Below the pieces are notes generated by a model. It had not been told where the DNA came from and searched no databases. It saw nothing but the letters and a program-made list of their open reading frames with translations. Positions 1 to 5,688 of a DNA stretch of 5,688 nt are shown piece after piece. The DNA is from a virus (lineage: Duplodnaviria > Heunggongvirae > Uroviricota > Caudoviricetes). The stretch's first letter is position 1, and each line of letters begins with the position of its first letter. The translations under genes and the position numbers were made by a program. The DNA lies in the IMG/VR virus record IMGVR_UViG_2675903578_000012; one strand, written 5' to 3'.

Positions 1-35
1 GAACAGGAGGGACAGCTGATAGAAACAGAAGCCAC
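1..35 (-). CDS. insA: IS1 InsA, N-terminal 11 codons only (partial, runs off the window)
   Basis: Minus-strand GTG at 35..33 is followed by GCT TCT GTT TCT ATC AGC TGT CCC TCC TGT, giving (M)ASVSISCPSC, the known InsA N-terminus. The rest of the gene lies outside the window. Confidence 0.7.
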   Translation of the reverse strand, partial: MASVSISCPSC

Positions 36-90
36 TGGAGCACCTCAAAAACACCATCATACACTAAATCAGTAAGTTGGCAGCATCACC
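1..90 (-). mobile_element. IS1 insertion sequence, left end only (terminal inverted repeat plus insA 5' region); element continues beyond the window start
   Basis: The reverse complement of 1..90 reads GGTGATGCTGCCAACTTACTGATTTAGTGTATGATGGTGTTTTTGAGGTGCTCCAGTGGCTTCTGTTTCTATCAGCTGTCCCTCCTGTTC. I recognise this as the canonical first ~90 bp of IS1, with the terminal inverted repeat GGTGATGCTGCCAACTTACTGAT at window 68..90. Identity stops at position 91/92. Recognition is from memory of the IS1 sequence, not a database search. Confidence 0.85.
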
Positions 91-91
91 C

Positions 92-202
92 CGCCACAGA
101 ACAATTATTGCTTTTGCCGTTGATGACAATAAAGTTTTTATCGCAGGCGTATACCACGGTGGGCAAATCTATGAAACCGATTTTTTATCCAGTGCACCGT
201 AA
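92..202 (+). pseudogene. 3' remnant of a RelE/ParE-superfamily-like toxin gene, apparently truncated by the IS1 insertion (36 codons plus TAA)
   Basis: The frame starting at 92 translates to RHRTIIAFAVDDNKVFIAGVYHGGQIYETDFLSSAP, with TAA at 200..202. The pattern (basic, hydrophobic run, V-D-D-x-K-V-F-I-x-x-V-x-H) resembles the C-terminal strand/His region of RelE/StbE/YoeB-type toxins. There is no start codon: the frame runs into the IS1 end at 90 and meets a stop inside IS1 at 65..67. The family call is by eye and tentative. Confidence 0.3.
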
Positions 203-242
203 AACCCCCATCCTTCAGGGCGTGGCGGATATCAAACTTTGG

Positions 243-1325
243 TCATTTTCTCTGGCTGATCTTTACCGGATAACCATCCCGAAGATCAATTAAGTGCTCC
301 GGTTCAGAAGCAAACCATGCATAAGATCCCCACGCCAATTCTGGTATTGCCTTTTTAAAAGGCAGAGCACTTCTGTCCATAAATGCCGTAAGGAATGCAA
401 GATTTTTCTCGCTGAACCCAGCGTCAATAGCCAAATGAGTGAGAGTAACTTTTCGTTCCCTGTTTATAGGCCCATCTGTCGCAACTACTTCAGTGAAAAC
501 TACAAGCATGTCCGAACCCGTTCGGTCCTCTCCCAAATCAATCAAAATAATATCTGGAAGTGCTTTTGAGGCATCAATATTCAGCCCCAATGCTTTTGCC
601 AATACATCATCCTGAGCAACAACTTTATTCCCGGATTCAGACAACCAGAGCACAGTTGGATTCTTAAGAAAATTAGGAGCAAAAACTTCGATGACGGCCT
701 TAGCTATTGTACTTGACGGGCCCGGAGCTAAAGTTCTCTTCTCTCCATTTGGGAAAGTGACGACTACGGCATCAGCAGCAATCACTGCCCCTGATTTCAA
801 TAAACGCAACCTAGCAAGAGCGGCTTTGTTCAAATGATTTTCTTGCCAGGAACTTATTGCACTCAGCAGCGAATCTCCTTCAAGCCCGGCATCAAAGAGT
901 GCTGCAAAAGAGCGATTCAAACTGTAACGAGGACGAGAGGATGTGGTGGGTATACCTTTACGCTCAACAATTGCATTGCAAGGTATTAGGCCATTTTTTA
1001 TAGTTTCATCACGTATTGGCTCACGCGTATTTTCCGCATACCATGCATCAGCAGGCCTTATCTTTTGTTTAGAGAAAGTCATCTTTACCCAGCTTTCTCT
1101 GGACGCATCATCAGTAAGAGCAGCCTGCGAATCTCCCATACTTACAACCTGGCTGGGCCTTATCCATCGCCCCAGCCCCTCAACCGCACCAGCATAAAAC
1201 ATGACAAAAATTGTTTTTGCAGCTATTTCCCGAATTAAATATCCACGATTCTCAGTCCCTTCAGGGAAAATTAATTGTAATCTTTCCCGGATAACATTCA
1301 ATGGGGGAACAACAGGCAGATTCAT
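243..1325 (-). CDS. Putative Type II restriction endonuclease (360 aa), possibly BsuBI/PstI-like; R subunit of an M-R operon
   Basis: A 1083-nt minus-strand ORF with ATG at 1325..1323 and TGA at 245..243. Its ATG overlaps the methyltransferase stop as ATGA, and a GGAG Shine-Dalgarno lies about 9 nt upstream inside the methyltransferase 3' end. The role is inferred mainly from this coupling to an N6-adenine methyltransferase; I could not pin down a clean PD-(D/E)xK motif by eye. The BsuBI/PstI family suggestion rests on recollection that this family is commonly paired with Eco57I/PstI-type methyltransferases, and is unverified. Confidence 0.6.
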   Translation of the reverse strand: MNLPVVPPLNVIRERLQLIFPEGTENRGYLIREIAAKTIFVMFYAGAVEGLGRWIRPSQVVSMGDSQAALTDDASRESWVKMTFSKQKIRPADAWYAENTREPIRDETIKNGLIPCNAIVERKGIPTTSSRPRYSLNRSFAALFDAGLEGDSLLSAISSWQENHLNKAALARLRLLKSGAVIAADAVVVTFPNGEKRTLAPGPSSTIAKAVIEVFAPNFLKNPTVLWLSESGNKVVAQDDVLAKALGLNIDASKALPDIILIDLGEDRTGSDMLVVFTEVVATDGPINRERKVTLTHLAIDAGFSEKNLAFLTAFMDRSALPFKKAIPELAWGSYAWFASEPEHLIDLRDGYPVKISQRK

Positions 1326-3217
1326 GCAATCATCACTCCATAGAAACCAGCGATAGTTCTCTCAATAATCCGTCTGTGGACGCCAGCATCAATTAACGAT
1401 TGAATCTCCATCACCTGCTCCAGAGAAGGCAACGGGATTGAATTCAATTCATAGGCCGAAACAGCAACACTTCCGCTTATACACCTGAACGCCCGATCGA
1501 CAACATGCGAATTAAGTAGCATATCAATAACATCAGGGCGAACCGCAGAGANNNNNNNNNNNNNNNNNNNNNNNNNNNNNNNNNNNNNNNNNNNNNNNNN
1601 NNNNNNNNNNNNNNNNNNNNNNNNNNNNNNNNNNNNNNNNNNNNNNNNNNNNNNNNNNNNNNNNNNNNNNNNNNNNNNNNNNNNNNNNNNNNNNNNNNNN
1701 NNNNNNNNNNNNNNNNNNNNNNNNNNNNNNNNNNNNNNNNNNNNNNNNNNNNNNNNNNNNNNNNNNNNNNNNNNNNNNNNNNNNNNNNNNNNNNNNNNNN
1801 NNNNNNNATGATTTTTTCTGTCTGCACTAAAACGAAAACCAGCTGAAGTTATTGATTCCGCCCAGACTAATGGGTAGCTATTTTTTCCTTTCGTCGTACG
1901 CAACTGCGACTTAAATCGATTCCAGACTAACTGACCTGTAGAGACTGAGTATCCCAGATCAGCTAAACGCGTAGACATCTGTTTTAATACATTAAGAAAA
2001 CAGGCATCATCTTTAACGCGTGGCAAAAGCCACGTTGCTCCACCTTTTTCTATATCAACATTACCTATTTTCTCAATTTTTGCTTTGTTCAACCCCTTAG
2101 GGACAAGTGAGGATACCTGGGCCCGAACTTTATGTTCTCCCGCCTTGAATGCTGTCAACATTGTTTCCTGGAGAACATCGTCAAAGACCCCATCCCTGTC
2201 AGTGACGAAATCAAGGGCATACGGAGTAGTTTTTTCGGTCAAAAGGGTTCGCAGCGCGGTGAAATACTGCCCACCAAGAAAAGAAGTTGGCGTAAGAAAT
2301 GCAATAACTCCTGTTTTCTCTTTAACCATGCGAACAGCTAAGTCGGTGAACAATCCATATAGATTTGCATGACCAAATAACGAACGAGAATATTTTTCTC
2401 TCGTTTTAATATCGAGAGTGACACGTCCGTAAGGCGGATTCCCTACCACAAGATCATAACCAGAAAATTTATCTTGCTGAAGCGCATCAGCAACAATAAT
2501 TGTATCTTCAGGCAATCTACGTTTTACCTTTACACATAGTGGCATTAGTACAGATTCGAGCAATACCAAACTCATCCAAGCCGCAAATGGATCGATCTCT
2601 ATCCCCTTTAAACGACGACTGATTCTCCTCAACATCCATTCAGGGGAAGACCCCTTGTCTTTTTTTAACATTCGAATGGCTACTGGTGCCAAAAATGCAC
2701 CGCCACCACACGCAGGATCAATAACCGATGCATGAGAAAAATCAACACCAGACTTTTCAGCCAGGTCCAAGAGACGCGCTACCAAAGGTGGGGGGGTATA
2801 GTAAGCCCCCAATTCCGAACGGTAAGCGGATGGCAGCATTACCGTATAAATTGACCCAATCAGATATCCAGCGTCCTCCGCCGGAAATTGAGCAATAAGC
2901 TCACCTGTTCGTTCAGCGAGCTCGCGTGCATCACATGGAATGTCTTCTATGTAAACAGTGTGCGGTACTGCCCTCATTTTAATGCTGCTTTTTTGCTTTT
3001 TTGCAAGGGTATCCCAATATGCAGCTACGATGCTGAAGCAGTATGAGCGGGCATGCATCAACCTTGACTGCCCGGTTTTGTAATTGCCCGCATAACCTTT
3101 GGCCATGGCTTTACAAGTTTGATATCTTTCCAGATTAGAAAACTCATTATCTGTAAAAAAATCAAAATGTTGCACATTCATAATGTAAAATCCTAATGTA
3201 TCAAACATGCGGGCCAT
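1322..3217 (-). CDS. N6-adenine DNA methyltransferase, gamma class (Eco57I/PstI/TaqI-like); M subunit; CDS spans an assembly gap, so true length is unknown
   Basis: The translated ORF contains GAYYTPPPLV (motif X-like), IDPACGGGAFL (motif I, SAM binding) and VVGNPPYGR (motif IV, the NPPY catalytic motif of amino-methyltransferases). The order X, I, IV followed by a C-terminal target-recognition region defines the gamma class. The start is ambiguous: ATG at 3217 is the longest with a weak RBS, ATG at 3208 is an alternative, and ATG at 3187 has an AGGA about 9 nt upstream. The stop TGA at 1324..1322 overlaps the R start. The frame across the N run cannot be verified. Confidence 0.8.
   Translation of the reverse strand: MARMFDTLGFYIMNVQHFDFFTDNEFSNLERYQTCKAMAKGYAGNYKTGQSRLMHARSYCFSIVAAYWDTLAKKQKSSIKMRAVPHTVYIEDIPCDARELAERTGELIAQFPAEDAGYLIGSIYTVMLPSAYRSELGAYYTPPPLVARLLDLAEKSGVDFSHASVIDPACGGGAFLAPVAIRMLKKDKGSSPEWMLRRISRRLKGIEIDPFAAWMSLVLLESVLMPLCVKVKRRLPEDTIIVADALQQDKFSGYDLVVGNPPYGRVTLDIKTREKYSRSLFGHANLYGLFTDLAVRMVKEKTGVIAFLTPTSFLGGQYFTALRTLLTEKTTPYALDFVTDRDGVFDDVLQETMLTAFKAGEHKVRAQVSSLVPKGLNKAKIEKIGNVDIEKGGATWLLPRVKDDACFLNVLKQMSTRLADLGYSVSTGQLVWNRFKSQLRTTKGKNSYPLVWAESITSAGFRFSADRKNHXXXXXXXXXXXXXXXXXXXXXXXXXXXXXXXXXXXXXXXXXXXXXXXXXXXXXXXXXXXXXXXXXXXXXXXXXXXXXXXXXXXXXXSAVRPDVIDMLLNSHVVDRAFRCISGSVAVSAYELNSIPLPSLEQVMEIQSLIDAGVHRRIIERTIAGFYGVMIA
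1552..1807. other. Assembly gap (256 N) inside the methyltransferase C-terminal / target-recognition region
   Basis: An uninterrupted run of n from 1552 to 1807. The X runs in the ORF track, and the minus-strand ORF 1477..1827, are artefacts of translating through it. Confidence 0.99.
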
Positions 3218-3431: not shown

Positions 3432-3788
3432 TTATTCGGGGCTATATTTTGTCACCCTGCGTATCCGCGCTTTCGCATTACGCTCAATCTGGATTAGCTT
3501 TTCTATATTTTTTCGCCTTTCCCGCTCCTCCTGGCGCAAGAGCCTTACATCATCTGCCAGTCTGGTTTCTCTTTTCGCCACAGAGAGCATCCAGTCAAAT
3601 GGCTCCACAACTGCACCGCAAATTTTACAGCGGACCTGACGCTCTTTTTCGTCAACCCGGACAGAAGCGTGATGGCAATATGGTCTTTCCGATGGCTCAT
3701 AAAGAAAATTAACCTGATTACGAGGGTTATCCTCTTTTACCGGAAATAAAACAATATTGCTTAACTCATCTTCTGGTTTTATTTCCAT
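3432..3788 (-). CDS. Hypothetical phage protein (118 aa) with a zinc-ribbon-like C-x-HH ... C-x2-C motif and a basic, coiled C-terminus
   Basis: ATG at 3788..3786 is preceded by AAGGAG with a 6-nt spacer. The protein begins MEIKPEDEL and contains PYCHHASVRVDEKERQVRCKICGAV, then an Arg/Glu-rich tail. The ORF track's longer version starts at GTG 3845, directly after the upstream stop; this is possible but the ATG has the better RBS. Stop TAA at 3434..3432. Confidence 0.6.
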   Translation of the reverse strand: MEIKPEDELSNIVLFPVKEDNPRNQVNFLYEPSERPYCHHASVRVDEKERQVRCKICGAVVEPFDWMLSVAKRETRLADDVRLLRQEERERRKNIEKLIQIERNAKARIRRVTKYSPE

Positions 3789-3845
3789 GCTCCTCTCCTT
3801 TGATGCGAATGCCAGCGGTAATTGAAGCCTGATAGCTAATTTCAC

Positions 3846-5030: not shown

Positions 5031-5688
5031 TTACTTCACAACTCCCGGAAAGCTGACATTTGAACGCCAGCTATCCCAGTTAAACGTCACCCACCGACAA
5101 CCGTTCATGGTCATGCGGTCCATAATCCTCTCACCAAGAAGCGTGCTCATTGCGGCATGATTCAGGTTTGTTAACATCCCGACACTGCACAGTGATGCTG
5201 TCCGGCGATCAATTATCTGGTGCAATACCACCTGCTCGTTTTTCGTCTCCCGCTGAATGCCTATTTCATCCAGGACCAGCAAATCAACCCCGCAAAGCTC
5301 CTGTAAAAATTTTTCACCGGATTTGCCGTTGTCGTAGCTGTCATGCAACACGCTCATGACATCAGACTCGGTGACGATAATCACGCTGCGCCCCTTCGCC
5401 ATCAGCCGGTTACCCATCGCCGCTGCAAGGTGATTTTTCCCGGTGCCGGTTTTACCGCTGAACACAAAATTCGTGCACCCGGTCATCAGTTCGTCAGCTA
5501 TGGATTTGGCCTGGCTCAGCGCGTATTTTTGCCCGTCGTTCTGCACCTGATAATTCGCAAACGAGCATTTGCTGTGCAGAGGCTGGATGCCCGAACGATT
5601 CAGGATTTTTTCCACCCGCAACTGGCGATTCTGGCGGTTAATCTCCTCGCTGCGTTTTCGTCCTTCAGCAAGTTGCCATTCCCGCCAC
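5031..5688 (-). CDS. DnaC-like replicative helicase loader (phage replication protein, AAA+ ATPase), 5'-partial; the N-terminus lies beyond the window end
   Basis: The protein shows Walker A FSGKTGTGKNHLAAAMG and Walker B LLVLDEIG. LNRSGIQPLHSKCSFANY closely parallels the E. coli DnaC segment FNRSGIRPLHQNCSFENY, and the C-terminus FNWDSWRS matches DnaC FNWDSYRS. The frame stays open from 5621 to 5688 (reading ...WREWQLAEGRKRSEEINRQNRQL-RVEKIL...), so the track's TTG start at 5621 is internal. Stop TAA at 5033..5031. Confidence 0.9.
   Translation of the reverse strand, partial: WREWQLAEGRKRSEEINRQNRQLRVEKILNRSGIQPLHSKCSFANYQVQNDGQKYALSQAKSIADELMTGCTNFVFSGKTGTGKNHLAAAMGNRLMAKGRSVIIVTESDVMSVLHDSYDNGKSGEKFLQELCGVDLLVLDEIGIQRETKNEQVVLHQIIDRRTASLCSVGMLTNLNHAAMSTLLGERIMDRMTMNGCRWVTFNWDSWRSNVSFPGVVK

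Follow-up and report, generated by a model that had tools for sequence, protein, structure and literature searches.

We find that the IS1 end at the left edge of the window, the 5,688-nucleotide stretch of phage DNA analyzed here, very probably marks the boundary of an IS1-associated deletion in a lambdoid prophage, which truncated a parE toxin gene and left the neighboring restriction-modification (R-M) pair at full length. The first-pass annotation had described an IS1 end, directly followed by the C-terminal part of a toxin-like gene that converges with a restriction gene 40 bp away. This description of the feature is accurate in all particulars. The explanation given for it, i.e., that IS1 had decapitated the toxin gene by simple insertion, did not hold, as the far end of IS1 abuts the chromosomal ydfI-ydfJ spacer in all eight chromosomes in which it could be read. 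The features that the argument needs are the following:

1..90, minus strand: the terminal 90 bp of IS1, IRL (insA-proximal) end, by identity to K-12 IS1A
77..105, plus strand: promoter-like match across the junction, with 9/12 consensus matches
91..202, plus strand: 3' remnant of the parE toxin gene (third base of codon 67, codons 68-103 and stop), by protein identity to L001 5801-6112
203..242, no strand: convergent spacer of 40 bp between the parE remnant and the restriction gene, read from the sequence
243..1325, minus strand: BsuBI/PstI-family type II restriction endonuclease gene, 360 aa, full length, by Pfam domains
1322..3217, minus strand: cognate N6-adenine DNA methyltransferase gene, by the gene call at L003 8172-10004 with PF02384 N6_Mtase and PF07669 Eco57I

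The identification of the left edge as the IS1 left end is confirmed by comparison with E. coli K-12, as positions 1-90 (GAACAGGAGG...GTTGGCAGCATCACC) match the insA-proximal last 90 bp of the annotated IS1A at 90/90 bases. Positions 79-90 (GGCAGCATCACC) are the IS1 terminus in reverse complement; the terminal inverted repeat stops at base 90, and the body of the element continues to the left beyond the window edge. Base 90 is C in the window, whereas the uninterrupted toxin gene has T at the corresponding position (L001 6000), and the boundary between IS1 and parE is therefore exact. IS1 is a 768-bp element encoding InsA and InsB (InsAB' via frameshift), and IS1-like matches to the window end are present in 4,963 of 5,426 complete E. 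coli genomes.

The sequence that follows is the end of a gene found uninterrupted in other genomes. Window 91-202 corresponds to nt 201-312 of a 312-nt CDS annotated as 'type II toxin-antitoxin system RelE/ParE family toxin' in E. coli FDAARGOS_943 (L001) and in VL7S7 (L002). Base 91 is the third base of parE codon 67, bases 92-199 translate to RHRTIIAFAVDDNKVFIAGVYHGGQIYETDFLSSAP, which is exactly residues 68-103 of the 103-aa toxin, and the stop codon lies at 200-202. Thus, codons 1-66 and the first two bases of codon 67 have been lost. The alignment of window 91-1551 to the uninterrupted loci is ungapped, at 99.86% identity to FDAARGOS_943 and 99.3% to VL7S7. Within window 91-242 there is a single nucleotide difference from FDAARGOS_943, at position 103, and it is synonymous (ACA vs ACG, Thr).

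The toxin family was assigned from this full-length parent and not from the 36-aa fragment. The parent toxin (L001 5801-6112) matches Pfam PF05016 ParE_toxin over residues 5-94 with 38.4 bits (cut-off 23), and is preceded by a 258-nt CDS for an 85-aa ParD antitoxin, which ends 5 bp before the toxin start and matches PF03693 with 32.1 bits and NCBIfam TIGR02606 with 53.8 bits (cut-off 46.2). The 36-aa fragment alone has no Pfam or NCBIfam match because it is too short. Of the profile comparison proposed for this peptide, the part concerning the fragment itself was thus negative, while the ParE/RelE identity stood through the full-length parent, and the fragment is, as had been proposed, a RelE/ParE C-terminus with no start codon. 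There is no ATG ahead of the remnant frame, and the sole in-frame start, a TTG at position 77, lies within IS1. No ParD gene was found in the window or among the called genes of the 21-kb loci bearing the IS1 junction. As the remnant at 91-202 lacks a start codon, an antitoxin gene and its own promoter, it is a pseudogene.

Since the window ends inside IS1, we turned to other assemblies, with 99.95-100% identity to the window, for the far side of the element. These were found through the identical restriction protein and include eight complete or near-complete chromosomes of 4.78-5.03 Mb (L003-L006 and L008-L011), all of which carry the exact 70-nt IS1/parE junction. The IS1 copy in L003 is full length (768 bp, 11236-12003) with 99.6% identity to IS1A; at the junction of all eight chromosomes the element is 768 bp long and 99.3-100% identical to the L003 copy. 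The called genes of these junction copies carry the Zn_ribbon_InsA, HTH_Tnp_IS1 and DDE_Tnp_IS1 domains of InsA/InsB. Beyond the IRR end, 8/8 chromosomes have ydfI, ydfZ, rspR (ydfH), ydfG and dcp, which is the K-12 gene order adjoining the cryptic prophage Qin. The IRR end lies within the native spacer between ydfI and ydfJ, with ydfI following 48 bp downstream and the would-be ydfJ stop 40 bp away.

A simple IS1 insertion leaves a flanking target-site duplication of 8-9 bp. The 9-bp flanks of the junction IS1 are TGTTATATG and CCGCCACAG in all eight chromosomes, i.e., there is no duplication. Other IS1 copies served as controls. The neighboring IS1 in L006, L009 and L010 has the 9-bp repeat AAACGGTTG on both sides, and simple IS1 insertions in the same ydfI-ydfJ spacer are found 7 bp away in E. 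coli G3/10 (duplication TGAATAAAA) and 6 bp away in E. coli 720632 (duplication TGTTTTGT). The duplications of the control copies are 9, 9 and 8 bp long, and a duplication at the junction IS1 would therefore have been visible. In G3/10 and 720632 the element has the same orientation as the junction IS1 and ydfJ is retained on its opposite side. The missing duplication is explained by a deletion or recombination; it argues against a simple insertion, not against the identity of the element as IS1. One native flank, with the other end joined to distant DNA and no duplication, is the textbook footprint of IS-mediated deletion or IS-IS recombination.

These flanks also decide what became of the original explanation. 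The first-pass annotation had proposed that window 91-99 (CCGCCACAG) would recur as a target-site duplication, and that the 5' part of the toxin gene and its antitoxin would lie beyond the other IS1 end. It had named unrelated far-side sequence with no duplication as grounds against this reading, and unrelated chromosomal DNA is what was found there, with TGTTATATG as the other flank in 8/8 chromosomes.

The deletion model starts from an ancestral prophage in a Shigella-type chromosome, where it would have occupied the ydfJ (Qin) site and carried parD-parE convergent with the BsuBI/PstI R-M pair, between the replication genes and DUF968/RusA/Q. Most likely, IS1 would then have landed in the AT-rich ydfI-ydfJ spacer, a recurrent IS1 target, after which its IRL end would have been joined to parE codon 67 by intramolecular transposition (adjacent deletion). 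The DNA lost in this way would comprise the ydfJ remnant, the tail, head and lysis genes, Q, RusA, DUF968, parD and parE codons 1-66. An alternative route to the same product would be homologous recombination between two direct IS1 copies. We infer both the order of these events and the choice of one step over recombination. Given how type II toxin-antitoxin systems work, the deletion was presumably not self-poisoning, because antitoxin and toxin would have been inactivated in one step. Intermediates, either an IS1 in parE with a duplication or a spacer IS1 with the prophage intact, were not found, although the collections scanned for junctions lack this lineage altogether.

The genes that survive are, in order, those for the repressor, Cro, YdaT, an O-like protein, a DnaC/IstB-like protein, DUF1627, DUF977, a hypothetical protein, the methyltransferase and the endonuclease, followed by the parE stump. 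The layout of Qin, which has its late genes by ydfJ and its toxin-antitoxin slot by DUF968/Q, fits a deletion from the spacer into parE. In FDAARGOS_943, the distance between the parE breakpoint and the end of the prophage is ~33 kb, including three IS elements; as this intact relative sits at a different attachment site, potB, the size of the loss is an estimate.

The 768-bp element and its flanks also bear on how else the junction could have arisen. A simple insertion splitting parE, with the 5' half and parD right beyond the other IS1 end, would account for the clean breakpoint and for the colinearity with the intact gene from base 91 onward. It conflicts, however, with the ydfI-ydfJ spacer found on the far side and the missing duplication in 8/8 chromosomes, and the called genes of the 21-kb loci include none matching ParD, while their sole ParE_toxin call belongs to a separate PaaA2-ParE pair. 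We consider this reading extremely improbable and rejected it on the far flank and the absent duplication. Even less credible is an assembly artefact in the form of a chimeric contig across the repeated IS1. The window does start inside a repeat of the kind that often breaks or misjoins short-read assemblies, and locus L012 breaks off at window position 95, beyond the IS1 end and four bases into what remains of parE. However, only 90 bp of IS1 are joined to unique sequence in the window, and the same junction recurs in eight complete or near-complete chromosomes that are independent and come from different submitters. We therefore rejected the artefact as next to impossible.

A two-step history deserves more weight and is a tentative possibility. 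Here, a simple insertion of IS1 in parE, with duplication of CCGCCACAG and survival of parD, would have been followed by recombination with a direct IS1 copy in the spacer, which would excise the interval. Such a history is consistent with the IS1 density of these genomes, which have three direct copies in 21 kb, and with the left flank of the neighboring IS1, whose variation among the chromosomes shows that IS1-IS1 recombination is active in the lineage. Inactivating the toxin first would also have been harmless. Against it stands, as a weak argument, that the parE target CCGCCACAG is GC-rich whereas three independent simple insertions are in AT-rich DNA. The reciprocal junction expected between the parE 5' half and the IS1 IRR, with any duplication length allowed, had no match in metagenome_contigs; a positive-control junction was also missing from the collections scanned, so this says little. 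A further reading, in which the remnant was kept for a function, concerns the promoter-like match at 77-105. A hybrid IS1/parE promoter could drive antisense transcription into the 3' end of the restriction gene, or a 41-aa peptide could be made from the TTG at position 77. The match spans the junction, the junction is identical in eight chromosomes, and the restriction gene is 40 bp distant with no terminator in between. However, 9/12 matches come from a scan that yields 0.7 chance sites per 400 bp, identity among genomes is what a clonal lineage predicts and not a sign of selection, and transcripts from the 77-105 site would begin downstream of the TTG. Additionally, it is unlikely that the last 36 aa of a 103-aa fold can fold or act by themselves. 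A retained function is thus very improbable, and we continue with the IS1-associated deletion as the preferred explanation of the junction.

In the promoter-like match itself, the -35 element TTGGCA lies within the IS1 end and, after a 17-nt spacer, the -10 element AACAAT lies in the parE remnant. The scan gave two sites in 400 bp vs 0.7 +/- 0.8 in shuffles. An outward hybrid promoter at 77-105 is possible as a prediction from these motifs; the evidence is weak, and a match does not show function. The scan found no terminator-like site in the 40-bp spacer at 203-242, and this spacer does not fold better than shuffles (z = 0.87). One could further speculate that the endpoint of the deletion is not arbitrary, that the parE stump is a boundary set by two addiction modules, and that the IS1-derived -35 might drive antisense transcription into the restriction gene. 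If so, only some of the IS1-promoted deletions entering the prophage from the ydfJ side would be viable, namely those that remove the toxin along with its antitoxin but spare the R-M pair, the loss of which would cause post-segregational killing. We regard this as improbable.

Searches for the junction were negative outside the matching assemblies. It is missing from the 5,426 complete E. coli RefSeq genomes, and the exact junction had no match in genome_contigs or metagenome_contigs, where the lineage is not represented. Its absence from E. coli, the synteny with K-12 and the three IS1 copies in 21 kb point to Shigella, probably S. sonnei, for the eight chromosomes. The region of the parE remnant and the restriction gene had no match in the phage or plasmid collections. 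In each of seven further E. coli genomes, there is a site that matches at least 80% of the length of the far-junction query. The ydfI-ydfJ spacer is 88 bp long and AT-rich, and in three lineages (L003, L017 and L018) IS1 occupies three different positions in it, all within a stretch of 13 bp and always with the IRR towards ydfI. The spacer thus looks like a local hot spot for IS1, and the locus is an example of recurrent IS1 hits in one intergenic region.

The junction IS1 is one of two copies that bracket the R-M pair and the early prophage genes in 8/8 chromosomes. In L003 these lie at ~958-1726 and 11236-12003, in the same orientation and 9.5 kb apart. This structure makes a recombinational loss of the R-M pair between the direct copies possible, and it is the support that we have for the idea that IS1 could mobilise or delete the pair. 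Transposition of the IS1-bracketed unit as a whole was also considered. The outer 9 bp in L003 are CACGGGTCG at the left copy (IRL side) and CATATAACA at the right copy (IRR side); the outer flanks share no common duplication and the left one varies between chromosomes. We therefore rejected such a transposition for lack of a common duplication. At the left copy (~958-1727 in L003-L011) three different left flanks occur, i.e., a molybdopterin-enzyme gene, the dicB region, and a simple insertion with AAACGGTTG. This variation indicates IS1-mediated inversions or rearrangements within the lineage.

A second, unrelated toxin-antitoxin pair lies outside the window beside the prophage repressor (L003 2668-3152). 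It consists of a PaaA2 antitoxin and a 96-aa ParE_toxin protein, which accounts for the only ParE_toxin call in the 21-kb loci, and it appears intact in 8/8 chromosomes.

The restriction gene adjoining the remnant is well supported by its domains, PF06616 BsuBI_PstI_RE (152 bits, 9.3e-45) and PF17728 BsuBI_PstI_RE_N (107 bits, 1.2e-30). The complement of its stop codon is at 243-245, and the gap to the parE remnant spans 203-242, which bears out the claim of a convergent arrangement at a distance of 40 bp. The methyltransferase gene overlaps the restriction gene by 4 bp and is annotated as HsdM-family in FDAARGOS_943 and VL7S7. The closest solved structure to the restriction enzyme is SdaI (2ixs, E = 1.8e-16). 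Its closest relatives among species-representative genomes are 63-70% identical and belong to Paraburkholderia, Burkholderia (Burkholderiaceae), Erwinia dacicola and others, a distribution which suggests that the phage may have acquired the enzyme horizontally. The exact restriction protein is recorded in 4,192 assembly-index blocks, mostly contigs of 2-10 kb. Such a distribution is suggestive of a clonal and IS-rich organism that has been sequenced intensively, with short-read contigs ending at its IS copies.

The window copy of the methyltransferase gene holds a run of N at 1552-1807. This run is 256 nt long, while its counterpart in otherwise 100% identical chromosomes is 193 nt (L003 9582-9774), and window coordinates to the right of the run are consequently shifted by 63. 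The run also inflates the methyltransferase ORF to 631 aa, compared to 610 aa in unmasked copies. In L005 (8209-10004, GCA_040189005.1) the methyltransferase is called in two pieces of 133 aa and 428 aa next to an intact restriction gene, which could reflect either an error in the sequence or an R-M system that is inactive in that strain.

Two other parts of the window are easily misread. The right edge (5031-5688) cuts a DnaC/IstB-like replication gene, which is 248 aa long at L003 5612-6358, and because of this truncation the 196-aa ORF listed there, which starts with TTG, is artefactual. The window looks like a short-read contig with repeats bounding both sides. The 137-aa ORF at 3432-3845 on the minus strand is a conserved hypothetical protein gene between DUF977 and the methyltransferase, called as 118 aa or 137 aa depending on the assembly. 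It has a weak zinc-ribbon match to PF08271, which at E = 2e-4 is below the cut-off.

The toxin-antitoxin and R-M pairs had also been read as a former defense or stability island. In the intact loci of FDAARGOS_943, VL7S7 and L007 the two pairs do adjoin, in a lambdoid prophage accessory slot, and the side-by-side arrangement therefore stands. The island reading is too strong, as the modules are unlinked elsewhere and the slot is one for prophage accessory genes. A parD-parE pair convergent with the R-M pair was found in 2 of the 5,426 complete E. coli genomes, plus L007. A parDE with 96% identity is present in 365 of these genomes, always on the chromosome, and among the 365 carriers only 2 have the R-M pair. 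In one example of a prophage with parDE only, the same slot has small phage genes as neighbors instead of the R-M pair. In other species, none of 80 loci had ParD or ParE within 4 kb of the restriction-enzyme homologues (best tblastn E = 0.4).

The two ParE variants also differ at their ends. The R-M-linked ParE has 103 aa and ends in ...GGQIYETDFLSSAP (L001 5801-6112), while the common prophage ParE has 99 aa and ends in ...GGQSYETDFL (L016 5264-5563). Nucleotide homology between the two parDE variants stops 14 nt ahead of the toxin stop, which places the cargo junction within the last codons of the toxin. A conserved unit of toxin-antitoxin and R-M genes was rejected, as the modules do not co-occur across lineages (365 parDE vs 2 R-M; 0/80). 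With the modules unlinked elsewhere, the adjacency is that of two independent cargoes in one prophage accessory slot, and the neighboring R-M pair is not to be taken for a component of a conserved toxin-antitoxin/R-M island.

The importance of the locus is mostly one of annotation. The 36-codon frame should be annotated as a parE pseudogene remnant at an IS1 deletion boundary and not as a toxin gene. The IS1 boundary also explains why short-read contigs end here. Beyond this, the locus adds to the documented cases in which IS1 drives the decay of prophages and genomes, here in a Shigella-type chromosome.

Compared to known systems, the prophage resembles Qin of E. coli K-12 in its site (the ydfJ side, beside ydfI), its orientation and the order of its modules, i.e., immunity, replication, toxin-antitoxin slot, DUF968, Q and late genes. 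The cargo of the slot differs, being relBE/hokD in K-12 Qin and parDE with the R-M pair in this phage, and here the late half, into the toxin gene, has been replaced by IS1. The parent of the remnant is like other ParD-ParE type II systems in its ParE_toxin domain and its antitoxin-first operon order. DNA gyrase, the target of other ParE toxins, may also have been that of the parent. Just the last 36 codons remain here, and toxin, antitoxin and regulation are gone. The parent toxin is distant by sequence from the solved ParE structures; in a PDB sequence search the best ParE-like match was 6x0a at a marginal E = 0.29, and matches to CheC were due to chance. The R-M pair is like other BsuBI/PstI-family systems, as both family domains are present in the restriction protein and its gene is overlapped by that of a cognate N6-adenine methyltransferase; here it is the neighbor of a deletion scar and not part of it. 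IS-mediated deletions are widespread in Shigella genome reduction, and compared to other IS1-mediated adjacent deletions there is nothing unusual in this one. All that is specific to the lineage is which two sites were joined, i.e., the ydfI-ydfJ spacer and codon 67 of parE, and the event is of a well-known kind, the ordinary IS-driven decay of prophages in IS-rich enteric genomes.
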